A stretch of DNA of 62,479 nt from Candidatus Bathyarchaeota archaeon (GCA_005882895.1 VBBD01000007.1:1-62479); one strand, 5' to 3'. Positions 13,448 to 25,658 are shown, numbered from the stretch's first letter. Notes: generated by a model from the sequence alone, not told the origin. Program-made: numbers and translations.

Positions 13448-13651
13448 CGATCACACCCAAGGTTCTCAGCCTGATATACGGCCCGGACTAGAAGTTTGGA
13501 GGAACCCCGCTAAATAGAGCCATGGTCAATACGTTCAACAGGACATTGGCCCGTAGAGCACAGGTACCAAAGGAACATGATCTGGCTCTCTAGGCTAAAG
13601 AGGACCATGAGCTCGAAAGGCTTAGCCTAGGCTACTTTTGAACCTGCCGGG

Positions 13652-14395: not shown

Positions 14396-14577
14396 GCGGG
14401 GGTACCAGAGTCAGGTCAAATCATCTGACTAAATGGGCGGGTCGCGCCTAGCACGCGCGCGCTACACTCAAGACCCAATACCGCAAAGGCGTCGGAGCGA
14501 TTAATGCCTTGGCAAAACGCGGGTGTGCTATCCCGTGGCGTAGGCCTTCGTGGGTTCGAATCCCACCCCCCGCACCA
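14396..14577 (+). tRNA. tRNA-Leu(CAA) with three introns (21/22: 14420-14432; 30/31: 14442-14465; 37/38: 14473-14529), CCA encoded
   Basis: Acceptor GCGGGGG/CCCCCGC-A-CCA; T arm GTGGG-TTCGAAT-CCCAC; Leu-type variable arm; spliced anticodon arm CGGGA-CTCAAGA-TCCCG; each intron bounded by a 4-bp helix and 3-nt bulges. Confidence 0.92.
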
Positions 14578-14601: not shown

Positions 14602-15459
14602 TCAAGGGTGAGCAGTCAGAATATCGGGGGTAGGGCTCGCTTTGACTTCTCTCCAGGTGAAGATCATTACGGGAATTATTACGCCTATCATGAACGCCAG
14701 AACTATCAGATTTCCAAAATCTAGGGGAATGATGTCTTGTATGCCAGTTCGGAAGAGTATCCCCGCAATGATGAATATTATGCCGCCGTAAAATAGACTG
14801 CGTGCCCCTGCTCTCGTTCCGAAGGTCTGGATTCTTTCGGGACCCCACTTCTTCGCGATTTGGAGGACGCCACCGAAGAGCGAACCAATTGCTAGCAACA
14901 CGATTAGTGTGCCAAAGCCGAATGCTGCCCCCGGTGCGAACCCAAGGTATGCAACAGGCATTGCTGGAACGGCGACCAAATAGATGAAAGTGGTGAACAG
15001 CCCAGTGTCCACGCCGAAGCCCGCGATGAACCCGTGGATTACGCACCAGTGTGTGGGAACCCGTCTTGAGGCGCCTTTCTCATCGTAATGCGTTTTAGCA
15101 TGAGTGCGCAGGAATCGAGCAAGGGGATGCCAAGACGGCAATTTCCCGGACAATATCAGATATCCCGCGAGGGACATGGCGATTCCGACAGCTACGTAGA
15201 CGAGTGCGTTCAAACCTTCGTCGAAGGCGAGATAACTAGCGAGCGCGAAGTAGACGAGCTGGGCCATAATTGCGCGTTGGAGTGTAAAGGCTGAGGCGAA
15301 GAACATGCCTGAGAGCATTCCTCCTCTCCCAGTAGCTGAACCCACTGAATAGCTGAAAGTGATAGGCCAAGTGTGTTCGTCTGGAATGACCCCGTGCAGC
15401 ATTCCGAGCCCCAGAGAGCCCAGCAAGAGAACGATCCATTCCGGGAGAAGAGGGATCAC
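14602..15459 (-). CDS. Ni/Co transporter-like membrane protein (NiCoT/RcnA/UreH superfamily)
   Basis: LGMLHGVIPDEHTWP TM1 motif, His-containing loop, IHGFIAG; divergent from nikR; GTG 15459 preferred start. Confidence 0.7.
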   Translation of the reverse strand: MIPLLPEWIVLLLGSLGLGMLHGVIPDEHTWPITFSYSVGSATGRGGMLSGMFFASAFTLQRAIMAQLVYFALASYLAFDEGLNALVYVAVGIAMSLAGYLILSGKLPSWHPLARFLRTHAKTHYDEKGASRRVPTHWCVIHGFIAGFGVDTGLFTTFIYLVAVPAMPVAYLGFAPGAAFGFGTLIVLLAIGSLFGGVLQIAKKWGPERIQTFGTRAGARSLFYGGIIFIIAGILFRTGIQDIIPLDFGNLIVLAFMIGVIIPVMIFTWREVKASPTPDILTAHP

Positions 15460-15481
15460 GGCACGAGAGATGGAGATGGAA

Positions 15482-15509
15482 TTATTAAGTATTTTCTGGA
15501 TTTTAATAA
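15482..15509. promoter_or_regulatory. Candidate NikR operator TTATTA-N16-TAATAA overlapping the permease TATA-like box
   Basis: Perfect inverted repeat with the 6-16-6 geometry of the E. coli NikR operator, between nikR and the permease. Confidence 0.6.
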
Positions 15510-15553
15510 CTCTAATATAAGCAGTCACCTGGAAATTATTATGGCACAGTCAA

Positions 15554-15940
15554 ATGCCCATCGTTAGCGTCTCGTTACCCGACGAACTAGTCGATTCCAT
15601 GACTGCGATTCAGGAATCCCAAGGATATGCCGGAAGATCTGACGTAGTCAGAGCTGCAATACGTCTCCTGCTATCTGACTCAAGAGAGAAAGCGTCACTC
15701 ACCGGCCGAGTAGCTGCAATTCTCGTGGTTACACATGATGAATCGAACGAAGAGCCAATCACTCGGTTGAAGCACGCTTACGATGACATTGTGCGAACCC
15801 ACATTCACAATAAAATGGGCCAAAACAACTGTTTCGAACTGTTTCTCCTAGAGGGAGAAGGAAGGAAGGTCGCTTCAATGACTAGTGCATTCCAGAAAGA
15901 GAAGAAGCTGAAAAGCGTCAGGCTTCTCGTGGTCCGATAG
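15554..15940 (+). CDS. nikR: Nickel-responsive regulator, NikR family
   Basis: N-terminal ribbon-helix-helix (IVSVSLP...GYAGRSDVVRAAIR) and metal-site residues H...HIH...C. Confidence 0.88.
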   Translation: MPIVSVSLPDELVDSMTAIQESQGYAGRSDVVRAAIRLLLSDSREKASLTGRVAAILVVTHDESNEEPITRLKHAYDDIVRTHIHNKMGQNNCFELFLLEGEGRKVASMTSAFQKEKKLKSVRLLVVR

Positions 15941-16074
15941 AGAGTTGACGAAGGGTTCAGAGGTACACAGCGAGACCATAGAATCTGAGATCTTTGGATC
16001 GATTTGAAACCCGACACTTTCATCGAAATGACCCGGCTTTGAATCGACGCGAGATTTGCAGTAGCGGTTAGATC

Positions 16075-16881
16075 TTAGCCTGAATGGAATAGAGCCGCGA
16101 AGTAGATCGTGAGGAGTCCAAGGGTTATGAGCACCGCCATCGTCATCGATTCCTTCGAGCTTGCAGGGTTCGCCTTGTTGAACATCGATCCAAAGAGCCT
16201 CACCGCGGCATAGATCGCCGTTCCGGTGCCCAGGGCGTAGAAGTAGCTGCTGTCGTAGGTTAGGTAATAGCCGCTGGCAGCGCCGATGAGCGAGGGAATC
16301 GCGAAGACTATGCTCAGAATTGCAAGGTCTCTCAGGCGACCTGTGGTATTCTTAGCGTGCTGGATAGAGTATGCGCAATAGCAAGCGCCTATTATCATAG
16401 GTTCAAGTGCCTTGTGCAGAACATATGCTACTCCGCCGGAAACGCCGCCGAATGTGTCCAGAAGCGACGTGCTTGTTGTCAGCGCAGCAGTTCCCCCGAA
16501 GGCTGCGCCCTCGCCGAGCCCGTGGACGCCTAATGCCGCTGCAACTAGCATCGGTATCGCCAAGCCATACTTTCCAATTGCTAACTCAGGCGAGAAGATA
16601 TTTCGATTACGATCAATTGAAAAGAAGAAGAGAAGGCCGATGGCAAAGAGTCCTACGATTGCAAGCTGACCTGCACCTCCAGAGAAACCCGAGTTGACAT
16701 CGAGGCTTGCTGCCCCGGTTATCGTGTCGACGAAAAACCAGAACAAAATCCCGAATGCAAATGCCGCAACGTATCTTGTCTGAAATTTCATTCCCACCAA
16801 CACAATAAGGGACAACCCTACAAACGCGGGAATCAGCGTCGACGCAGTCCACGGAAGGAAACTCTCAGCGAATCCCAGCAT
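16075..16881 (-). CDS. ZIP (GufA-like) divalent metal permease
   Basis: About 8 TM; GVHGLGEGAAFG and VLHKALEP match ZIP TM4/TM5 motifs; ATG 16881 fits a leaderless start. Confidence 0.7.
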   Translation of the reverse strand: MLGFAESFLPWTASTLIPAFVGLSLIVLVGMKFQTRYVAAFAFGILFWFFVDTITGAASLDVNSGFSGGAGQLAIVGLFAIGLLFFFSIDRNRNIFSPELAIGKYGLAIPMLVAAALGVHGLGEGAAFGGTAALTTSTSLLDTFGGVSGGVAYVLHKALEPMIIGACYCAYSIQHAKNTTGRLRDLAILSIVFAIPSLIGAASGYYLTYDSSYFYALGTGTAIYAAVRLFGSMFNKANPASSKESMTMAVLITLGLLTIYFAALFHSG

Positions 16882-16919
16882 GAGCAAGTGTCTCAAGCCT
16901 ATTGTTCTAAGGTTTTTTG

Positions 16920-16934
16920 GCTCAAGTTACGAAC
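16920..16934 (-). promoter_or_regulatory. Conserved motif GTTCG-N5-TGAGC abutting BRE/TATA-like elements of the ZIP gene
   Basis: Minus strand GTTCG TAACT TGAGC CAAAAAA CCTTAGAA. Confidence 0.65.
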
Positions 16935-16977
16935 AGGACAAAGAATATCCTTTGAGTGCGAGACTAACTAGCTTCTT

Positions 16978-16992
16978 GTTCGCAGTTTGAGC
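16978..16992 (+). promoter_or_regulatory. Conserved motif GTTCG-N5-TGAGC abutting BRE/TATA-like elements of the cupredoxin-2 operon
   Basis: GTTCG CAGTT TGAGC CATAACT TTCTTAAT. Confidence 0.65.
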
Positions 16993-17058
16993 CATAACTT
17001 TCTTAATCATCGGACGCCAGTCTGTACATTCCCATATTCGCAGCGTAGTTAGGTTTCC

Positions 17059-17601
17059 ATGCAACTTACCTTGCCGGTCCACTCGGAGACTAGTGGTAAC
17101 GGAAAATTAGCTGGGAGCTCAAGCGGGGAAGAGTCCGCGCGAACAAGACTTTTGCGACGGGTGCTGGTGATCGTACTCATCGTCGTGGTAGTCACCGGGT
17201 TTTTCGCTGCGGCGTATACGTTTCATTTCTTCGGTCTCGGGGCAACCAACTGTTGGGCCCGTCCCGCGAGCGTGCCGGCAAGCTCTGCCTACTTCGTCGT
17301 CGTGATGGCTAACGAAGGGATGAATGTCGGGTTCAACGGTAGCAAGTTCCAAAGCGGCTCTTGGCCTATAATGAATGTAACGCTGGGGAGAAACGTTACG
17401 ATTCATGTCATAAACAATGATACAATTCAGTCTCATGGATTTGCGATACAGAGCTACTTCAACGGTTTTGCGCTGGGTCCCGGCAAGTGTAGTGATGTGA
17501 CGTTTACAGCGGATCAACCTGGCTCGTTCTTGGTTTATTGCTACATTTCCTGCACAATCCATGTGTTCATGCAGAATGGGAAAGTTAACGTGAACCCTTG
17601 A
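17059..17601 (+). CDS. Membrane-anchored cupredoxin-domain protein (CuA-like), copy 2
   Basis: TM; NNDTIQSHGF; GSFLVYCYISCTIHVFMQNGKV. Confidence 0.82.
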   Translation: MQLTLPVHSETSGNGKLAGSSSGEESARTRLLRRVLVIVLIVVVVTGFFAAAYTFHFFGLGATNCWARPASVPASSAYFVVVMANEGMNVGFNGSKFQSGSWPIMNVTLGRNVTIHVINNDTIQSHGFAIQSYFNGFALGPGKCSDVTFTADQPGSFLVYCYISCTIHVFMQNGKVNVNP

Positions 17602-17604
17602 ACG

Positions 17605-17943
17605 ATGGAAGGAGCGACGTGGCTATCCATGTTTAACGTCACCGACGGGCTGGTGCATGTTCTCCTCGTGGCTTTCTCGGCCTTAGTCCTGTTGATCTCT
17701 CTGCTCGCGTACGTCGGTCGGAGAGACTCGAGGTATCTTTTTCTCTCGCTAGCTTTCGCCTTCCTCGCGCTTAGCCAAGTAGTCGAGCTAGTTGAGACCA
17801 TATTTTTGTCGAATCAGTTGATCTTCATTCCCCTAACAGGGGTACACTTGTCGCACTTTCTAGACTTCCTGATGCTGTCTAGCTTCAGCTTGGCCTTGCT
17901 TGTTCGAAATGGAGAGAGCCTTGGGAGTTCAGGGAAACAGTAG
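17605..17943 (+). CDS. Small 3-TM membrane protein co-transcribed with a wHTH regulator
   Basis: Hydrophobic helices with intramembrane His/Glu/Asp; overlaps the next gene. Confidence 0.7.
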   Translation: MEGATWLSMFNVTDGLVHVLLVAFSALVLLISLLAYVGRRDSRYLFLSLAFAFLALSQVVELVETIFLSNQLIFIPLTGVHLSHFLDFLMLSSFSLALLVRNGESLGSSGKQ

Positions 17944-18430
17944 GGTCAGGGTCAAGCAGCTTGTCTCGCTTGCCCCAGGCGTTCACCTAAGAGAACTCCA
18001 GCGACTCCTGGGCATGTCATTCAATTCTACACGGTACCATGTGGACAAGTTGACGACGGCCGGCGAAATTATCCGAGTAGAAGAAGGAGGGTATTCTCGG
18101 CTCTATCCCGCCGGGATCAGCGAAGCAGAAAGGGCCATTTTCACCCTTGTTCGCGGCGAGACGGATAGGAAGATCTTGGCGAGTCTAGTTGCTGACCCAA
18201 TCCTCTCAAACAAACAGCTATGCGAGCAAACAAACCTGGCGAAATCCACCGTCAGTGAACATCTAACGGGACTTGTGCGAGCGGGCATAGTCAAGACGCG
18301 ACAAGTGACCGAGAACTTTGTTGCATATGAACTGGAGCAACCTGATCAAATCCGATTCCTGTTGAGGAGCCAGAACCCGAGTATTCTCAAGAAGGCAAGT
18401 GACCGATTCATAGACCTGTGGGACTTCTGA
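17909..18430 (+). CDS. Tandem winged-HTH (ArsR-like) transcription regulator
   Basis: PGVHLRELQRLLGMSFNSTRYHVDKL and LSNKQLCEQTNLAKSTVSEHLTGL; C-terminal DRFIDLW. Confidence 0.85.
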   Translation: MERALGVQGNSRVRVKQLVSLAPGVHLRELQRLLGMSFNSTRYHVDKLTTAGEIIRVEEGGYSRLYPAGISEAERAIFTLVRGETDRKILASLVADPILSNKQLCEQTNLAKSTVSEHLTGLVRAGIVKTRQVTENFVAYELEQPDQIRFLLRSQNPSILKKASDRFIDLWDF

Positions 18431-18441
18431 GACGGCAGGGC

Positions 18442-20235
18442 ATGCGCTTGAAACTTCAGAACAAGCGACGCTTAGCTCTGACATTCGTCATTATCAGCTT
18501 TCTCTCACTATCTACAATAACCTTGGGACAGCCATACGGCCTTCTCAAAGCAACGGGAAGCAGTCTGGTCTCTCAACAACCCAGTTCCAGCTCTCCGATT
18601 ACAGAATTCCCTATACCTTACGCGAACCCCGGGCCGAATGCAATTGTCTCTGCCCCGAATCACATCTTCTGGTTCGTGGAATACAACACAGGCGAAATCG
18701 GCGAGTTCAACGAGACAGCAAAAACCTTCAGTCAAATTCCGATACTCGAGACAGGAGGGGCCATCCCGGCATCGTTGGCATTGGATGGTTTTGGCAGAAT
18801 CTGGTTTACTGATCAAAACAAGAATAATCCTAGTGTCTGGGTTCTCAATGCGTCCGCGTCTCCTGTAACGTTCCACCAATACTTGACGAACACGTCGAAT
18901 TCGACACCCGTCTTCGTCATCGTAGACAATAGCACCAACGACGTATGGTTCACTGACACAACCGCCAACAATATTGGAAAAATCGACCATCTGACAGGTC
19001 AAATTACAAAATTCACTCTTCCGACCTCGAACTCAGGCCCCGCTGAGCTTGCCCTCCAGAACGGTACGTCATACCTGTGGGTCACCGAAAGTTTTGCGAA
19101 CAAGGTTACCCGGTTTGATATGGCGTCTCACAATTTCCAGGAATTCACGCCCTCCGTCTCACTAGTTTCGCCGGTGGGGATCGCTGTCGACAAGAACGGG
19201 AACGTGTGGGTCTCGGAGCACGGTGCGAGTTCAATCGCGGAGTTGATCCCATCTAATTCGACCTTCAGAAAGTATCCGACCACCCAACCCTCAACCTACA
19301 AGACGACGGCTCCAGCAACAATCGCTATCGACAAGCAAGGCCGATTCTGGTTTGTCGAACACTTCGGAAACAGGGTCGGACGGCTAGACCCTGCGACCGG
19401 GATAATGGATGAGTTCGCTATTCCCACCTCGGGTCTTGCATACTCCCTCCGTAACGCACTGGACCCTAGTGGCAACTTCTGGTTCACAGAGTACACGGGG
19501 AACCAACTTGGAATGATCCCGTGGAACGCGACTTCCCCTATCGCTCCTAGCTCAATGCTAGCTCCTCTAACAATGAACGCCGGCCAAACAGTCACCTCGC
19601 AGATCTCCCTGTCAGGTACTACAGCGAGTTCCGTCACCGTCAACTTGAATGTCACAAGCACATTCACAACCTACGGCCAAACATCCGCGAGCGAGGTAGC
19701 GCTGTCAAACTACAGTCTCGTGCTCAACCCGAATCAAGCCAAGACTGTCACTCTCTCGATCACCCCGGATGGCAGCTTACCTTCCGGACTCTACACAGTG
19801 GGTATTGTCGCAACGGATGGGAAGACTTCGTCAGTTGGTGTTGTCTTTCTCCAAGTACACGGCACCTTCTCAATACTCAATCTTCTCCAAACCTACCTCC
19901 CGGCGATCCTAATCGCTGCCGCTTCGGTCTTGGTACTGACGAGCATCCTGATTAGAAGAGGGAGGGCAAGGTCGGCTCCGCTGGATTCGAACACTAAGCT
20001 TCCGCTCGGCACGATCATAGTCATCGGGACAATTCTAATCGTGCTTGCCGTACAAGCGATACCTCCTTCGACAGCCAAGTGTATAGGCCTTCCCCCGCCT
20101 CCACCGAACGGACAGCCAGCCGGGCCAGACTATATCGGGCTGGGCTTGGACATTGGATCTCTAGCCTTCTTTGTCGTGGTACTCTATTTGATACTAAAGA
20201 GCCGACGCAAGAACAAGCCTTCTAGTCCAGGGTAG
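18442..20235 (+). CDS. Secreted Vgb-like beta-propeller with multi-TM C-terminus
   Basis: Signal peptide; blades FWFVE/IWFTD/VWFTD/LWVTE/VWVSE/FWFVE/FWFTE; Ig-like region; three C-terminal hydrophobic segments. Confidence 0.8.
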   Translation: MRLKLQNKRRLALTFVIISFLSLSTITLGQPYGLLKATGSSLVSQQPSSSSPITEFPIPYANPGPNAIVSAPNHIFWFVEYNTGEIGEFNETAKTFSQIPILETGGAIPASLALDGFGRIWFTDQNKNNPSVWVLNASASPVTFHQYLTNTSNSTPVFVIVDNSTNDVWFTDTTANNIGKIDHLTGQITKFTLPTSNSGPAELALQNGTSYLWVTESFANKVTRFDMASHNFQEFTPSVSLVSPVGIAVDKNGNVWVSEHGASSIAELIPSNSTFRKYPTTQPSTYKTTAPATIAIDKQGRFWFVEHFGNRVGRLDPATGIMDEFAIPTSGLAYSLRNALDPSGNFWFTEYTGNQLGMIPWNATSPIAPSSMLAPLTMNAGQTVTSQISLSGTTASSVTVNLNVTSTFTTYGQTSASEVALSNYSLVLNPNQAKTVTLSITPDGSLPSGLYTVGIVATDGKTSSVGVVFLQVHGTFSILNLLQTYLPAILIAAASVLVLTSILIRRGRARSAPLDSNTKLPLGTIIVIGTILIVLAVQAIPPSTAKCIGLPPPPPNGQPAGPDYIGLGLDIGSLAFFVVVLYLILKSRRKNKPSSPG

Positions 20236-20240
20236 CCGCG

Positions 20241-21008
20241 CTAGAGTTTCGAGTACCAGATGTAACAGATTGTTCCCAGCAAGGCAAAGGCGAGTGAGGG
20301 TCCGGCTAGGATCAATATCGATCCTAGGGAATCGCCAGCTGGGACTTGTGCAAAAGAAATGGGCGACAGTTGCCGGAACGCCTGAATAGCCCAGGTCATG
20401 GGGTTTGACGCTACTATTGGGGCTAGGACACGAGGAAACACGCTCACTGGATAGAACAATGCGCTGAGGAAGGACAGGTAGAGCTGGATTGCGCTTCTGA
20501 CGGTGACCCACATTTCTATGCTCGAAGAGAACGCGGAGATAGCCATGGAAAGTCCGACTATTCCCAGCGAGAAGAGACCTACTATCAAATAGGCTACGAA
20601 AATCTTTTGAGTAAAAAGTATCCCATAGAGGTAGCATATGACAAGGGTCCCAGGGAAGGTCGCTATCACGCTTCTAACGACTCCGCCTAAGACCCTTGAG
20701 AAAGCGAGAATCGGCCTCTGCACCGGAAGGGTCAGAAGGTACGATGTTAGGTCTTTGATGTACTTCTCACGCCATACATCTCTGCCGGACTGGAATGCGG
20801 CAACCATCGCCGTTATGAGGTTCGATCCGGGCGCGATGAAGAGGAAGTAGTTCTCGCCTTGGCCGGTAACGAGTCGGCCGAAAGTCGCGGCTGTCACAAA
20901 GAGGTCGATCGCAAAGTTTGCGAACATTATCGCGACAAGAAACGCGTCGGAGAAGAGGATCCGAACGTCTCGCTCGATGATCAGCGGGATGAGTCGCGTA
21001 TTGCTCAA
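20241..21008 (-). CDS. ABC-2 type exporter permease
   Basis: YFLFIAPG, LSALFYPVSVFP, NPMTWAIQAFR. Confidence 0.88.
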   Translation of the reverse strand: MSNTRLIPLIIERDVRILFSDAFLVAIMFANFAIDLFVTAATFGRLVTGQGENYFLFIAPGSNLITAMVAAFQSGRDVWREKYIKDLTSYLLTLPVQRPILAFSRVLGGVVRSVIATFPGTLVICYLYGILFTQKIFVAYLIVGLFSLGIVGLSMAISAFSSSIEMWVTVRSAIQLYLSFLSALFYPVSVFPRVLAPIVASNPMTWAIQAFRQLSPISFAQVPAGDSLGSILILAGPSLAFALLGTICYIWYSKL

Positions 21009-21817
21009 CCGTAGATTCCTCCTTCCAGACGGCGGAAATAGAACGCGGCGCCCAACCCAAGGAAGATTACGACGAACGCTACCAGCCCCGCGATCGCGGG
21101 AATGTCCAGAGTGAACCCGACAAGAGAATTACGCGCAGTGTCAGCGGCAAACGAAACCGGCGAGAAAGGGGCGAACAACGAGACATAGAACGGCATGAAA
21201 GCGATTGGGTAGAGAGCCGTGCTTCCCCTCGACACTGCGAGCTCAAGGAGGGCAAGAACCACGTCAAATCTGTTAGCGCTCTTCACGCTCACGGCCACGG
21301 TTATCGACATGCCAGTAACGCCGAAGGCCAGGAGGAAGAGCGATACGAGAGCTGTTAGGATCGAGAGCGGTTGGTTGAACCCCCAAACGAAGGCGACGAT
21401 GACAAACATTGGTATGGTGTAGATTATGGCTCTCATCGCTCCGCCGAGCGCTCTTCCAATGATGAACTGCCGTCTTGCGATTGGAAGCGTTAGCAGATAA
21501 TCGAGTACTCCCTCTTCCGCTTCTTCGAAGATGTCGTAGCCGATGACAAACGAGATGGAAGCGATCGTCGCTACTACGCTCCCAACGGCGTAGTACTCGA
21601 AGAAATTGAGCCCCGGAATATGGATGAGTCCGCTAATGAGGAACGCAAAGACAAAGAGCTGTATGATGAAGGCCAGACTTCGGGTTATGATGATCCAAGG
21701 GGTCCTGAAGAGGACCGATACATCTCTGAGAGCCATCTGAAGGATGAGATGCGTGGGTGATTCTGCGGCTATGGTTGTCTTACTCGAGCCGTTGGCCGGT
21801 GTATGTGAGGAAGACAT
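21005..21817 (-). CDS. ABC-2 type exporter permease
   Basis: EAEEGVLDYLLTLPI, STALYPIAFMP, PVSFAADTAR; start uncertain. Confidence 0.85.
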   Translation of the reverse strand: MSSSHTPANGSSKTTIAAESPTHLILQMALRDVSVLFRTPWIIITRSLAFIIQLFVFAFLISGLIHIPGLNFFEYYAVGSVVATIASISFVIGYDIFEEAEEGVLDYLLTLPIARRQFIIGRALGGAMRAIIYTIPMFVIVAFVWGFNQPLSILTALVSLFLLAFGVTGMSITVAVSVKSANRFDVVLALLELAVSRGSTALYPIAFMPFYVSLFAPFSPVSFAADTARNSLVGFTLDIPAIAGLVAFVVIFLGLGAAFYFRRLEGGIYG

Positions 21818-22715
21818 CTTCCAGACTGACCTCCTTCAGTTTGACGCTTTCGATCTTGAACCCTTGAGTGCTCAGGGTGTCGACTATCTTTGGAAGAAGA
21901 AGTGTGCCTGAGTTAAGGAAGACCAGGATCCTGTTGTCCTGTTTCTTGACATCATGTACCTCTGGGAACTTGGTCAACATGTCGGGTCTGAATTCGGATC
22001 CATCGTTCAGTGTAAGCTCTAACACTTCTCCGCCCTTTACGGTTCCCTTCAACTGTTCCGGGGTTTCACTGGCAACCAGCTTGCCCTTGTTGACTATCGC
22101 AACTCTCTCGGAGAGACGCTCAGCCTCGTCCATCATGTTCGTGGCTACAATGACGGTCGAGCCCTCGTCCCTCAGTTGGCGTATCATCTTCCAGACCAAC
22201 AATCTGCTCGGGACGTCGAGGAAGGCGGTAGGTTCGTCGAAGACCGCTATGCTCGGCCGCTGAACCAGTATCTTCGCATCCTCCACTTTCTTCTTCATAC
22301 CTCCACTCATCAGCCAGGTCCGCTTCTTACGTGCCTCCCAAAGGTCGAGAGCTTTCAGGACGTCTTCCACGCGACGTCGGCGCTCGTCTTTGTCAAAGGT
22401 CGTGGTCATCTTGAGGTGCCAGTTCAACACCTCGAACCCACTCAGGATTCCGTCCACCCGTGGATCCTGGAAAGCGATTCCGATAAGTCTCCTAACCTCG
22501 TTAGGCTGCTTCACAACATCAAAACCGTTGACTGTTATCGTCCCGCTCGTGGGGCGATAGACCGTTCCCATCATAAGCATCAGAGTGGTCTTTCCAGCAC
22601 CGTTCGGACCGAGAAGCCCTAGAATCTCTCCATCCTTGATTGTAATGGAGAAGTCTTTGACAGCGTCAAGATCGCCAAATCGTTTTCCAGTTCTCTCAAA
22701 CGTTATCATTGACAA
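21780..22715 (-). CDS. ABC exporter ATP-binding protein (DrrA/NodI-like)
   Basis: GPNGAGKTT, MSGGMKKK, VFDEPT, SLEDVFL. Confidence 0.93.
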   Translation of the reverse strand: MSMITFERTGKRFGDLDAVKDFSITIKDGEILGLLGPNGAGKTTLMLMMGTVYRPTSGTITVNGFDVVKQPNEVRRLIGIAFQDPRVDGILSGFEVLNWHLKMTTTFDKDERRRRVEDVLKALDLWEARKKRTWLMSGGMKKKVEDAKILVQRPSIAVFDEPTAFLDVPSRLLVWKMIRQLRDEGSTVIVATNMMDEAERLSERVAIVNKGKLVASETPEQLKGTVKGGEVLELTLNDGSEFRPDMLTKFPEVHDVKKQDNRILVFLNSGTLLLPKIVDTLSTQGFKIESVKLKEVSLEDVFLTYTGQRLE

Positions 22716-22847
22716 TTAATCCTGGATTGTGAGATCGCAGGGAACACCTGTATGCAGTTCGCTCAGCGAATCGGAGCGAAGCCGGATAAAAACCCGCGAC
22801 CCGTCTACGCACGCTTTTGAAGAGGCCCAGAGCAAGGCCCTTCCAAG

Positions 22848-23420
22848 ATGGACTTCGCGAGAACGGTTCTAACCCGTAAAATGATCCGAGCCTTCAAACC
22901 AGACCCCGTGCCCAAAGACAAGATAGAGCGGATTCTCTCCATCGCCCAACACTATCCCAGTGCCGGATACAGCCAGGAGGTCGCGTTCATCGTCGTCACC
23001 GACAAAGAGAGACGAAAGAGGATAAGGGAGCTAAGGGATCTGAGAAGCGACGCCCCTGTCCTATTGATACCATGCGTCAGCGAGAAGGTGGTCCATGATC
23101 GCTATCATGAACCTGACAAGATCCGCTCGGGAGGAAGAGAAATCGACTGGCCTGTCCCGTTCTGGTACTTCGACGTCGGATGCAGTTGTATGCTAGTATT
23201 CCTGGCAGCCGTAAACGAGGGGCTTGCAGCGTCTTTCGCCGGCAGCGTTGGAATCTTCAAACCTGGAATTCTGAGAAAGGAGCTTGGGATTCCAGAGCAT
23301 TATGAGCCTGTCGGTGTTCTATCGCTGGGTTACCCAGATCATACTAGTGACGTTCCTTCGCCATCGCTGAAACGTGGAAGGCGACCCTTCAGGGATTTTG
23401 TCCACGACGACAAGTGGTGA
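22848..23420 (+). CDS. Nitroreductase family protein
   Basis: RKMIRAF, YPSAGYSQ, LAAVNEGL, LSLGYP. Confidence 0.9.
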   Translation: MDFARTVLTRKMIRAFKPDPVPKDKIERILSIAQHYPSAGYSQEVAFIVVTDKERRKRIRELRDLRSDAPVLLIPCVSEKVVHDRYHEPDKIRSGGREIDWPVPFWYFDVGCSCMLVFLAAVNEGLAASFAGSVGIFKPGILRKELGIPEHYEPVGVLSLGYPDHTSDVPSPSLKRGRRPFRDFVHDDKW

Positions 23421-23463
23421 TTGCAGAACTCAAGTGTCGACGCGAACCGATACTTTGCGTCGA

Positions 23464-23952
23464 CTAATTTACGTCTAGTTCTGCTTTTTCGAAGACATAG
23501 ATCGTCGTAAAGATGGGTTCATAGATTTGGAATTTACCTGTTGTTGTCGCCTGGAACCTGACTGACTTGGTCTCGCCAATGTGAGCAATTATTCCGTTAG
23601 GCGTGTAAAACTGAACAGCTAACCCGTGGGCTTGTGTAGAATCATTGTTGATGATGCGCAAGACAACGACCTCCCCTTTCTGAACACTCATGACAGGAAG
23701 TGATTGATGAACACTGTCGTTGTATCCGATTGAACCAGCCACGATTGTGAAACAATGAGTGTTCCCGGCAGTGACGCACGGTGTGATGGCGGTTGAAGGA
23801 ATATAGATTACAAAGAAGTAGGTCGCGACGGACGATACGACCATTATGATCACAACTATGATCGCCACTATGTTAGCAAGGGTACTCTTGTCAAGTCGAA
23901 GCGTAAATGTTTGCCTCTGAGATGCATCTGCCCGAGTTTGCAGATCCGCCAA
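23464..23952 (-). CDS. Cupredoxin-like paralog, copy 3, C-terminal metal ligands lost
   Basis: TM; NNDSTQAHGL; ligand loop reads GKFQIYEPIFTTIYVFE; start may be CTG 23943. Confidence 0.72.
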   Translation of the reverse strand: MADLQTRADASQRQTFTLRLDKSTLANIVAIIVVIIMVVSSVATYFFVIYIPSTAITPCVTAGNTHCFTIVAGSIGYNDSVHQSLPVMSVQKGEVVVLRIINNDSTQAHGLAVQFYTPNGIIAHIGETKSVRFQATTTGKFQIYEPIFTTIYVFEKAELDVN

Positions 23953-23978
23953 GGGGTAGTTACGATTTAAGAGCTATG

Positions 23979-23993
23979 GCTCAACATGCGAAC
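23979..23993 (-). promoter_or_regulatory. Conserved motif GTTCG-N5-TGAGC abutting BRE/TATA-like elements of cupredoxin-3
   Basis: Minus strand GTTCG CATGT TGAGC CATAGCT CTTAAATC. Confidence 0.65.
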
Positions 23994-24073
23994 CGTTCTT
24001 GACAAATCTTCTGGGTCGCATTGCAGCTGGCACGCTTATGCTCAATCAGAATTGCGAGCATCCCTTCGACAGG

Positions 24074-24826
24074 TTAGGATTGGAGCAGTGAGTCCACGGA
24101 CCGATTAAGGTTAGTGTTTCGCAAATCGTAGTATAGTCTTCTGTTCGTTTTTCCTTTGTTCTCCAGCTTCAGCAGTTGGATCTGTCCGATCTCTTTGAGA
24201 TGGGACACGTGTAGTCCTCCGTCGGCTTGTCGGTCTATGCCTTCGATTTCGACGATTCTAAGCTGGGCTTCAGCTGGTGGTGCGGCTTCTGCAAGTTTCA
24301 CCATGTCCGGGAGCTTGAGGGCTTCTTCCCGTTTCAAAAAGTACGTTTTGATCGGCGCATCTTTTCTGATCAATTCATTCGCTTCTGCAACGTATCCTTC
24401 GATCTGGGTCCGGTCGAACGATTCCAAGTTGAAGTCCATTCTAGACCGGTCCACGTCGATCTGATTCCCTGTTATTCGGCAGTTGGCCCTCGAATAGAAC
24501 AGGGAGCTGAGAAGGTGGCCGGCCGTATGCATCTTCATCAGTGTATGTCGTCTTTCCCAATCGACCTGTCCCGTCACTTTGTCTCCGACCTTCAAAGATG
24601 CGGGGGATTCCAGCGTGTGAAGTATGTTGTCGTCAGCTTTTGTCGTCTCTTGGACCTTTGACGCGTTTAGGGTCCCGGTGTCGCAAGCTACACCGCCACC
24701 TCGTGGGTAGAAGAGTGTCTGGTCCAGAACAACCCCCTGCCCCTCGACCGAAACTACCTTCCCGATGAAGTCATTGGAATACGGCTCTTCCCAGTATAGC
24801 TTCCTCGTAATGGATAATCTCCCCAA
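24074..24826 (-). CDS. alaXM: Alanyl-tRNA editing protein AlaX-M
   Basis: LDQTLFYPRGGG, MKMHTAGHLLS, DRQADGGLHV, KGKTNRRL; start TTG 24826 or ATT 24811. Confidence 0.9.
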   Translation of the reverse strand: MGRLSITRKLYWEEPYSNDFIGKVVSVEGQGVVLDQTLFYPRGGGVACDTGTLNASKVQETTKADDNILHTLESPASLKVGDKVTGQVDWERRHTLMKMHTAGHLLSSLFYSRANCRITGNQIDVDRSRMDFNLESFDRTQIEGYVAEANELIRKDAPIKTYFLKREEALKLPDMVKLAEAAPPAEAQLRIVEIEGIDRQADGGLHVSHLKEIGQIQLLKLENKGKTNRRLYYDLRNTNLNRSVDSLLQS

Positions 24827-24830
24827 ACTA

Positions 24831-25658
24831 CTATCGTACAACAGATGGCCTTACGATTACTGCCTCTTTCGTACTCTTCGACTGGTTGTATACTTCCTGG
24901 GCTTCCCTTACAGTCGCGCCTCCGTGCACTATCTCTCGAATTGCTCTGATCATTGGCACCGGGTGATCGGACTGCCAGATGTTCCGACCCATGTCAACTC
25001 CTACGGCTCCCTCTTGAATCGCGTCGTAGGCGAGTTGAAACGCGTCCAGCTCTGTCTCCAGCTTGGGTCCTCCAGCGACAACCAAAGGCACTGGACAGCC
25101 CTTGACAACTTTTCCAAAATCCTCGCAATAGTAGGTCTTGACAAAATGGGCACCCAGCTCTGCGGCGATTCTACAAGCCAGTGCAAGATAGCGCGCGTCT
25201 CGTTTCTCCAGCTCCTTGCCCACCGCCGTAACGGCGAGAACCGGAATACCATGTTCCTCGCCCTCATTCACAAGCCTGCCAAGGTTCGTCAAGGTCTGAT
25301 GCTCGTGAGCAGACCCCACAAAGATCGAAAGGGCCATCGCCGCAACGTTCAGCCGAACAGCATCGCTCACAGAGGTTGTGATAGCTTCGTTAGTCAGAGA
25401 ATCCCCAATAATGCTAGCTCCACCTGAAACCCGGAGCAAAATAGGCACGTTGGATCTCGGGTCAATAGATGTCCGGAGTACTCCACGGGTGCACATTATC
25501 CCGTCCGAGTACGCGAGGAGAGGCTCGATCGTTTTCCGAGGCTCTTCCAGCTTGTGCGTGGGACCCATGAAGTAGCCATGGTCCACCGCAAGCATTACAG
25601 TTCTTCCCGTTTCAGGTTTGATTATTCTTGAAAGCCGGTTTTTCATTCCCCAGTCCAC
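24831..25658 (-). CDS. lsrF: Class I aldolase of the LsrF/DhnA family
   Basis: MDWGMKNRLSRII, MLAVDHGYFMGPT, ELGAHFVKTYYC, AGGPK, GVDMGRNIWQ. Confidence 0.85.
   Translation of the reverse strand: MDWGMKNRLSRIIKPETGRTVMLAVDHGYFMGPTHKLEEPRKTIEPLLAYSDGIMCTRGVLRTSIDPRSNVPILLRVSGGASIIGDSLTNEAITTSVSDAVRLNVAAMALSIFVGSAHEHQTLTNLGRLVNEGEEHGIPVLAVTAVGKELEKRDARYLALACRIAAELGAHFVKTYYCEDFGKVVKGCPVPLVVAGGPKLETELDAFQLAYDAIQEGAVGVDMGRNIWQSDHPVPMIRAIREIVHGGATVREAQEVYNQSKSTKEAVIVRPSVVR

Follow-up and report, generated by a model that had tools for sequence, protein, structure and literature searches.

A 17-nt sequence element, GTTCGNNNNTTGAGCCA, stands in front of three genes in the stretch of DNA that we analyzed, 62,479 nt from Candidatus Bathyarchaeota archaeon (GCA_005882895.1, VBBD01000007.1:1-62479; "the window"). 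These are a gene for a ZIP-fold metal permease, the first gene of an operon that begins with cupredoxin-2, and a cupredoxin-3-like gene. The element is conserved, is linked to these genes and keeps a fixed place and orientation at their promoters. It is very likely a functional cis-regulatory site to which a protein would bind, and the candidate binder, with somewhat better than even chances, is a tandem winged helix-turn-helix (wHTH) protein encoded at 17900-18430 in the cupredoxin-2 operon. We give an even chance to the idea that the bound factor is an activator that works by recruitment. We infer that the site would serve activation rather than repression, that copper would be the signal and that the wHTH protein would be the binder; the statement as a whole, an operator of a copper-acquisition regulon at which a wHTH protein encoded in one of the target operons would activate by recruitment, is evenly balanced in our judgment.

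The motif and its place at three promoters

The motif is bipartite, asymmetric and 15 bp long. GTTCG is followed by four variable bases and TTGAGC, and the centres of the half-sites are about 10 bp, or about one helical turn, apart. The three exact copies that the window contains are GTTCGTAACTTGAGCCA at 16918-16934 (minus strand) in the promoter of the ZIP-fold permease gene, GTTCGCAGTTTGAGCCA at 16978-16994 (plus strand) in the promoter of the cupredoxin-2 operon, and GTTCGCATGTTGAGCCA at 23977-23993 (minus strand) in the promoter of the cupredoxin-3-like gene. The original prediction, made from the sequence of the window, had described a shared motif upstream of these three genes. Indeed, GTTCG-N4-TTGAGCCA had three exact matches in the window and none in 100 dinucleotide-preserving shuffles, and in the whole assembly of this genome (1.97 Mb, 92 contigs, 86.6% complete) the exact motif was found only at the three window sites. 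The positions given for the 15-nt motif were also correct, and the invariant block is 2 nt longer, as it extends by CA past the 15-nt sites to 17 nt. With one mismatch, the assembly contained four matches compared with six for the reversed-pattern control; all four lay in coding sequence or resembled it and had no promoter boxes downstream. Since the flanks of the three copies are unrelated, the motif is not part of a duplicated segment.

At its 3' end the motif runs into predicted promoter boxes in the order GTTCG-N4-TTGAGC, CAnAAc, TCTTAnAA, where the second element resembles a transcription factor B (TFB) recognition element (BRE) and the third a TATA box. For the ZIP-fold gene, these are BRE-like CAAAAAA at 16913-16919 and TATA-like CTTAGAAC at 16904-16911 (minus strand); for the cupredoxin-2 operon, CATAACT and TCTTAATC at 16993-17008, with the TATA-like box at 17001-17008 (plus strand); and for the cupredoxin-3-like gene, CATAGCT and CTTAAATC at 23964-23978, with the TATA-like box at 23964-23971 (minus strand). 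The claim that the motif directly abuts such a segment therefore stands for boxes assigned from sequence: place and orientation are fixed, and the CA is shared by motif and BRE-like bases. The orthologous cupredoxin-2 promoters retain TTTCTTAATCA-like bases. We compared 28 distinct instances of the motif with their downstream sequence, a set that includes two unannotated, non-promoter matches. Positions 16-17 (CA), which the search pattern did not force, were invariant, so that a BRE-like CA ended the motif in 28 of 28 instances; positions 19-20 (AA), 23-24 (CT) and 28-29 (AA) were strongly conserved, and the TATA-like box was at +7 to +14. The spacer was variable, with a pyrimidine-purine preference at its first two positions. 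Compared with the boxes in front of the 10 tRNA genes found, the TATA-like boxes CTTAGAA, CTTAATC and CTTAAAT were less T/A-rich, in a comparison of these individual boxes.

The motif begins at -53 (ZIP), -81 (cupredoxin-2) and -41 (cupredoxin-3, listed TTG) from the start codon. In motif-bearing ZIP promoters the ATG follows 35-40 nt past the motif end, which puts the TATA-like box about 27 nt before the ZIP start and would fit a leaderless mRNA. The ATG of cupredoxin-2 (17059) is 64 nt past the motif end, suggesting a leader of about 28 nt. For the cupredoxin-3-like gene, the listed TTG at 23952 is only 24 nt past the motif and is out of frame in the relative G007 (genomes, loci and contigs are numbered with G, L and C, respectively). 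In this start region (window 23940-23993; L037 4579-4760; L038 10540-10795), indels of 1 and 3 nt a short way downstream break the TTG frame in G007, while CCCTTGGnGG is conserved. The start codon of this gene is thus uncertain; the true start may be elsewhere, or the conserved sequence may be a leader element.

Conservation within the order and beyond

The original prediction had proposed the presence of the motif in orthologous promoters as a test, and we found it conserved in 14 relatives and in more distant lineages. The search of 60 relatives from the order gave 35 exact matches, our own three included, compared with two for the reversed control. Of these, 26 occupied the same slot in front of an orthologue of ZIP, cupredoxin-2 or cupredoxin-3, in 15 genomes with our own (G000, G002, G004, G006, G007, G008, G010, G011, G014, G015, G017, G018, G020, G021 and G026). 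Across these relatives the spacer is variable, while the CA behind the motif is as constant as its 13 specified bases. The motif remains exact while its flanks diverge, for example between G017 and G018 or between G008 and G000.

Among the other nine matches, a single conserved coding sequence accounts for four, at its 3' end (G017:C53, G018:C34, G019:C28 and G021:C20); that in G008:C100 has the same sequence as this group, and that in G008:C115 has the same spacer. The match in G008:C111 is a second coding-like site, and those in G016:C4 and G037 are unannotated and have no promoter boxes. The conserved coding sequence encodes ..RLAQVTN.. and contains the exact 17-mer in its 3' end in several congeners (L009, L011, L029, L034 and L061); the match arises there by coincidence of coding and makes raw counts of the motif too high.

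To avoid selection by the motif itself, we also examined 20 orthologous ZIP promoters that were selected by protein. The motif was exact in 13 of them, had one mismatch in two, was reduced to its 3' half in three and was missing in two, one of which (G016) had lost the whole upstream region. At the cupredoxin-2 promoter, the exact motif was present in the same slot in G007, G008, G011, G014, G017, G018 and G026. At the orthologous place of cupredoxin-3, it was exact in G007 and had one mismatch (ATTCG) in G018.

Two further copies that had been proposed in the window did not hold up. The variant GTTCGCTCAGCGAAT in front of the ABC exporter exists at 22757-22771, but GTTCG was kept in only three of nine orthologous ABC/nitroreductase intergenic regions (window, L035 and L038). 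Close by, at 22781-22800 in the same intergenic region, seven of the nine orthologous regions contain the 20-mer GCCGGATAAAAACCCGCGAC without any difference, and the remaining two each carry a single change; a strong promoter or a further operator may be located there. The weak copy GTTGAACGTATTGAC proposed for cupredoxin-1 exists at 13525-13539 (minus strand), but this region has a different conserved block of its own, GAAnnTATTGnCnATGGCTCTATT at 13510-13539 (minus strand) upstream of cupredoxin-1, which was present in four of six genomes compared.

The element recurs in three more distant lineages of Nitrososphaerota. The scan of genome contigs for the wHTH protein gave no distant loci with a single protein as the query, whereas a six-row alignment revealed seven, with 37-47% identical wHTH proteins and 48-62% GC. 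Their ZIP promoters retain TTGAGCCA and the promoter boxes, with one to three mismatches in the 5' half. At these loci a reversed copy of the motif, followed by GCCAnT and then CTTAAATC, stands directly upstream of the DUF7471-wHTH gene pair (exact in L081 and L085, one mismatch in L080, two in L084); the box CTTAAATC of the cupredoxin-3-like promoter is the same as the box after the reversed copies in L080, L081 and L085. In G401, a single chromosome of 2.25 Mb, the copy upstream of DUF7471-wHTH is the sole exact one. In the third lineage (G408 and G412, about 45% GC), exact copies precede ZIP; DUF7471 is divergent in both genomes, and the wHTH gene is so in G408 only. Among the relatives of G402 (41 genomes), TTCGNNNNTTGWRCCA gave 58 matches compared with 38 for the control, a weak enrichment; the count includes an unpublished genome, G416, on which no claim rests. 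In three distant genomes, a motif copy is also found upstream of a membrane protein of 680-710 aa with a 4Fe-4S dicluster domain (L099 3009-5132; L083 5600-7914; L106 3514-5704). This protein, of which no homologue was found in our genome, may also belong to the regulon and could be a metal reductase.

The wHTH and DUF7471-like proteins also form a paralogous clade of pairs, in which the recognition helices differ from those of the orthologue clade. This clade goes together with another, related motif, TTGTACCA with promoter boxes and other 5' halves, found immediately in front of the wHTH operon in L088 and L090. In 99 kb of paralogue-clade loci, the sequence TTGTACCA occurs 11 times, compared with four for the control. 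In our own genome TTGTACCA was not enriched (42 matches, 63 for the control). The paralogous pair is present in 14 of 21 genomes of the genus, including ours, where a second tandem wHTH protein (about 30% identical) at C4:21058-21573 is followed by a DUF7471-like membrane protein (L055 3720-4577); no clear motif was seen in its upstream region.

Genes of the locus and related archaeal systems

The permease gene (16075-16881, minus strand; 268 aa from ATG 16881) had been labelled ZIP. Its product had no Pfam match (PF02535 included), no NCBIfam match and no match to the Protein Data Bank (PDB) by profile, and one Atlas cluster with 13% PF02535 members served as a lead only. Its AlphaFold model (pLDDT 89.9) had BbZIP structures as all of its ten best PDB matches in Foldseek (TM 0.44-0.57, E 4e-4 to 9e-2), and the pairs H120-x3-E124 and H156-x3-E160, which we take to correspond to the metal sites of BbZIP, were invariant in 25 homologues. 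The label therefore holds at the level of the fold.

On the other side, cupredoxin-2 (17059-17601, plus strand) is a membrane-anchored protein with C-x3-C-x2-H-x2-M near its C terminus, a weak Cupredoxin_1 match and matches to NosZ/CoxB C-terminal domains. The following genes on the same strand encode a DUF7471-like membrane protein with three predicted transmembrane helices (17605-17943; PF24283, E 4.7e-5, below cut-off), the tandem wHTH protein (17900-18430, start possibly at ATG 17909), which combines HVO_0163_N (PF24266, 3e-13) with an ArsR-like HTH_24 domain (PF13412, 1e-15), and, as the last gene of the operon, a membrane-anchored beta-propeller (18418-20235; Vgb_lyase PF24684, 7.9e-42, and NHL repeat). 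Further downstream are an ABC-2 exporter (20241-22715, minus strand), a nitroreductase (22848-23420, plus strand), the cupredoxin-3-like protein (23464-23952, minus strand), which lacks Cys/His/Met copper ligands and has a Nitrosocyanin/NosZ-like match of 3e-5, far below cut-off, and an AlaX-like gene (24074-24841, minus strand). The locus has two architectures among the genomes. It is either divergent, as in the window, where the ZIP gene and the operon of cupredoxin-2, DUF7471, wHTH and propeller each have their own motif, or a single operon in which one motif is followed by ZIP, cupredoxin-2, DUF7471, wHTH and propeller. The gap between the two divergent motif copies varies from 17 to 108 nt.

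The gene for NikR (15554-15940, plus strand) is located head to head with that of a 308-aa membrane protein without family match (14602-15528, minus strand), with an AT-rich stretch between them. The two are adjacent in the loci of nine relatives and seem to form a unit of their own for the uptake of nickel or cobalt, under a separate operator. Between two genes at 14519-14577 there is a weak tRNA/tmRNA-like Rfam match (17.9 bits, below cut-off) where ARAGORN finds no tRNA and an overlapping open reading frame ends in GFEPT-like residues; it may be a tRNA fragment. Sequencing runs available for this stretch are labelled soil metagenome; three soil metatranscriptome runs contained next to none of the sequence words of 15500-24500. 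Since amoA was not detected in the host genome, and the locus of a congener carries a eukaryote-type topoisomerase IB-like open reading frame (by reading of its translation), we read the host as a soil Nitrososphaerota lineage that does not oxidize ammonia.

The closest published counterpart of the motif is from Nitrososphaera viennensis. The consulted text and supplement of Reyes et al. 2020 (PMC7785015) report 12 occurrences of a motif, TTCSGSMTTTGWACYANT, at distances of -35 to -70 from the start codons of genes that are up-regulated under copper limitation, with instances such as GTTCG-GGAT-TTGTACCA, ATTCG-CCTA-ATGTACCA-cttttCTTAAATT and GTTCG-TCAC-GTGTACTA-caacgCTTTAATC. One copy is reversed upstream of NVIE_014340, and another heads the operon NVIE_014290-014280 (ArsR family)-014270; the regulation of the N. 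viennensis copper genes is called an open question there. The published motif agrees with ours in its 5' half, (G/A)TTCG, in the 4 nt of its spacer and in the TTG..CCA frame; nAAc and a TATA-like box come after it, and it occurs in reversed orientation as well. Read by eye, 11 of 12 half-site positions agree with the window motif and the spacer length is identical, the difference being G for A in TTG(A/T)ACYA. Two of the three window copies are within the published distance range, and the gene sets overlap in type, since the N. viennensis cluster contains an ABC transporter, an AlaX-like gene, a propeller-like 'sialidase' and blue-copper proteins. The motifs differ in the 3' half, TTGTACCA there and TTGAGCCA here (TA for AG). 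The systems differ as well, as the window host has no detectable amoA and only three sites, and CopC/D and multicopper oxidases are not among the window targets. Judging from the published consensus and instances, the window motif probably belongs to the same family as the copper-limitation motif.

In its layout, the locus resembles that of TFB-RF1 in Pyrococcus furiosus and other Thermococcales, which among the systems studied comes closest to the mechanism proposed here. According to the consulted parts of PMC5937170, TFB-RF1 binds a 13-nt dyad, TCTGAANTTCAGA, at a fixed distance upstream of a weak BRE, is encoded in an operon that it activates, has two target operons and was shown to activate in vitro. 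Common to both are a short dyad at a fixed distance upstream of a BRE (weak there, possibly weak here) and a TATA box, a tiny regulon, a regulator within the target operon and conservation across the order, whereas the sequences are unrelated, the TFB-RF1 site is a true palindrome and the window site asymmetric, and activation, demonstrated in vitro there, would be our reading here. The sites of EarA, Ptr2 and the Sulfolobus ara-box are likewise described in the consulted parts of PMC5512572 as located immediately upstream of BRE next to sub-optimal core elements, but the factors and sequences differ, and EarA uses four 6-bp repeats. The window motif is thus in the position that known archaeal activators use in these two sources, as had been claimed for it.

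The candidate regulator and competing explanations

The original prediction named the wHTH gene as the obvious candidate regulator. In favour of this, a wHTH orthologue was found in eight genomes, and eight of nine loci have it inside the motif-driven operon, while in G021 it is divergent from a motif-bearing ZIP promoter; in distant lineages, motif copies stand directly upstream of DUF7471-wHTH. The model of the protein (pLDDT 79.7) shows two winged helices in one chain, and its whole-chain matches were other tandem winged-helix proteins, with low TM scores. The C-terminal winged helix is like that of the ArsR/SmtB proteins CadC, CzrA, SmtB and HlyU by sequence and fold (TMt 0.63-0.81), and the NCBIfam HTH_metalloreg model matched with E 2e-11 and a score of 43.4, below the cut-off of 55. 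Unlike the ArsR/SmtB proteins, in which a single winged-helix domain forms a homodimer with defined metal sites, the wHTH protein has a second, N-terminal winged helix (HVO_0163_N), a conserved DRFIDLWDF tail and a membrane-protein partner gene, and no metal-site residues were identified in it. The DUF7471 gene always adjoins the wHTH gene. In the DUF7471 orthologue clade, helix 1 retains a His and helix 3 the sequence HLSHFLD, both of which are missing from the paralogue clade. Our literature search found no paper on DUF7471 and one on HVO_0163. The protein is a candidate metal sensor or sensor partner of the wHTH protein; the predicted complex of the two scored 0.00, which counts neither for nor against this.

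In the mechanism that we propose, the motif would serve as operator for a small set of co-regulated copper-homeostasis genes that is conserved among soil Nitrososphaerota. The site, at about -53 to -37 of the three promoters, would touch the BRE-like CAnAAc and a presumably weak TATA-like box, and a sequence-specific factor bound to it would most likely help TFB and the TATA-binding protein onto these promoters. Under copper shortage, if the analogy with N. viennensis holds, this factor would turn on the genes for the membrane cupredoxin-2 operon, the cupredoxin-3-like protein and the ZIP-fold metal importer. Our leading candidate for such a factor is the tandem wHTH protein of the cupredoxin-2 operon, with the adjacent His-bearing DUF7471 protein as a possible signal input.

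Several observations weigh against this mechanism. The exact motif is present in seven genomes in which no wHTH orthologue was found (G004, G006, G008, G010, G011, G017 and G020), and in six of them the gene is deleted from the locus. G008, G011 and G017 have a clean deletion of DUF7471-wHTH-propeller that left the first 45-90 nt of DUF7471, G010 and G020 keep a DUF7471 remnant without wHTH, and the G006 locus consists of ZIP and cupredoxin-2 without DUF7471 or wHTH. In G010, G011 and G020 (77, 82 and 92% complete, respectively), no PF24266 member scored over the cut-off. The motif is thus kept without the wHTH gene, which means that the local gene is not needed for its persistence, unless a second copy was not assembled. 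In addition, the site overlaps the BRE edge, leaving room for repression, the reversed copies are about 5 nt further from the TATA-like box, and for the cupredoxin-3-like gene, transcription would be predicted to begin only after the listed TTG. Finally, the published consensus strings of N. viennensis revealed no enriched genome among 400 genomes of the class: TTCSGSMTTTGWACYA had eight matches in six genomes and the published 27-nt 'down-regulated' motif two matches in the same 400, TTCSNNNNTTGWACYA had 13 matches compared with 31 for the control in five genomes of one genus, and an 80 kb stretch of G367 (42.7% GC) contained no promoter-like sites.

The history of the locus bears on the missing genes. 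DUF7471, wHTH and propeller were deleted at least three separate times in the genus, with short 5' DUF7471 remnants left (L035, L036, L039 and L051 compared with window 17602-20240). The locus is also a recombination mosaic; between G008 and G001, identity is 95-96% for the ABC, nitroreductase and NikR genes but only 69% for the ZIP gene. Together with G014, which has two modules, this makes a second wHTH copy elsewhere, or a recent loss, possible.

The persistence of the motif without the wHTH gene would also be explained if the operator were read by a factor encoded elsewhere, such as an unlinked helix-turn-helix protein, the paralogous tandem wHTH protein or the neighbouring NikR, and the local wHTH protein were cargo or a modulator. 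We consider this a minor possibility, to be taken seriously. The distant lineages, in which the motif is at the DUF7471-wHTH promoter itself, argue against it. NikR has an orthologue (at least 51% identity) in 13 of 14 relatives with promoter copies, and none was found in G003 and G013, whose motif is degenerate. But orthologues also occur in G032, G034 and G036, which belong to genera that gave no motif match, and in G002, G010, G015, G020 and G026 its gene is on another contig than the motif locus. NikR operators of Escherichia coli and Helicobacter pylori consist of two dyad half-sites roughly two helical turns apart. The motif has no such widely spaced dyad; its half-sites are about one turn apart, and the distance between divergent copies is not constant. 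The paralogue has different recognition helices, and in G010, G011 and G020 it falls under the negative PF24266 result given above.

It is unlikely that the element is a repressor operator, at which a factor on the BRE edge would block TFB until a signal, for example copper loss, released it and de-repressed the genes. The motif does share GC/CA with the BRE-like bases, the ArsR/SmtB proteins that the C-terminal domain of wHTH resembles are mostly repressors, and the reversed copies are at the regulator's own promoter, as in autorepression. But most of the site is upstream of BRE and TATA, the usual place of archaeal activators, while repressors usually cover BRE/TATA or the start site (consulted parts of PMC5937170 and PMC5512572). 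Moreover, the TATA-like boxes look weaker than those in front of the tRNA genes of the same genome, and in a classic ArsR system, where the repressor is released by metal, the genes would be induced when metal is in excess and not when it is limiting. It is very unlikely that one of several TFB paralogues reads the block as an extended part of the promoter and that no separate regulator is involved. The genome has three TFB genes and the motif is contiguous with BRE-like bases, but its conserved bases reach 17-20 bp upstream of BRE, too far for the 6-7 bp TFB contact given in the consulted parts of PMC5512572, and there are reversed copies at a different TATA distance and only three promoters in the genome. 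Least probable of all, and hardly to be expected, is an action in RNA as a short G-U-containing hairpin in the 5' leader. The sense-strand GUUCG and UUGAGC can pair with two G-U pairs, and the orientation relative to the genes is fixed in the genus. However, there is no covariation, because the bases are invariant, the three leaders folded no better than shuffles (z = 0.43, -1.10 and -1.82), their minimum-energy folds did not use the hairpin, Rfam had no match at the motif, the spacing between motif and ZIP start codon agrees with a site outside the transcript, and reversed copies exist. By the Rfam search and the comparison of folds with shuffles, we rejected both a stable RNA structure and membership of a known RNA family for this site.

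Returning to the wHTH protein as activator, the original suggestion is upheld in that the gene is in or beside the motif-driven operon wherever it is present, and it is called into question by the seven genomes that keep the exact motif without an orthologue found. A more far-reaching idea, which we put forward tentatively and regard as doubtful, is that DUF7471 and the HVO_0163-type tandem wHTH protein may be an undescribed archaeal metal-sensing pair, spread across Nitrososphaerota including ammonia oxidizers, whose two winged helices would read GTTCG and TTGAGC and turn copper acquisition on when copper is scarce. If each unlike half-site were bound by one winged helix, this would explain the asymmetry of the site and its fixed orientation next to BRE, and clade-specific changes in the recognition helices would accompany the AG-to-TA change of the motif.

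Copper supply limits ammonia-oxidizing and related soil archaea. The reported motif family probably reaches beyond the ammonia oxidizers and travels with one uncharacterized pair of regulator and membrane protein. Our analysis extends what was published on the N. viennensis motif, as it defines a position in the promoter, broadens the range of taxa and names a specific pair as candidate regulators. With one protein, a 17-bp site and three promoters, this system could reveal a copper-responsive transcription factor in this phylum and enlarge the small number of archaeal activators that are mechanistically understood.

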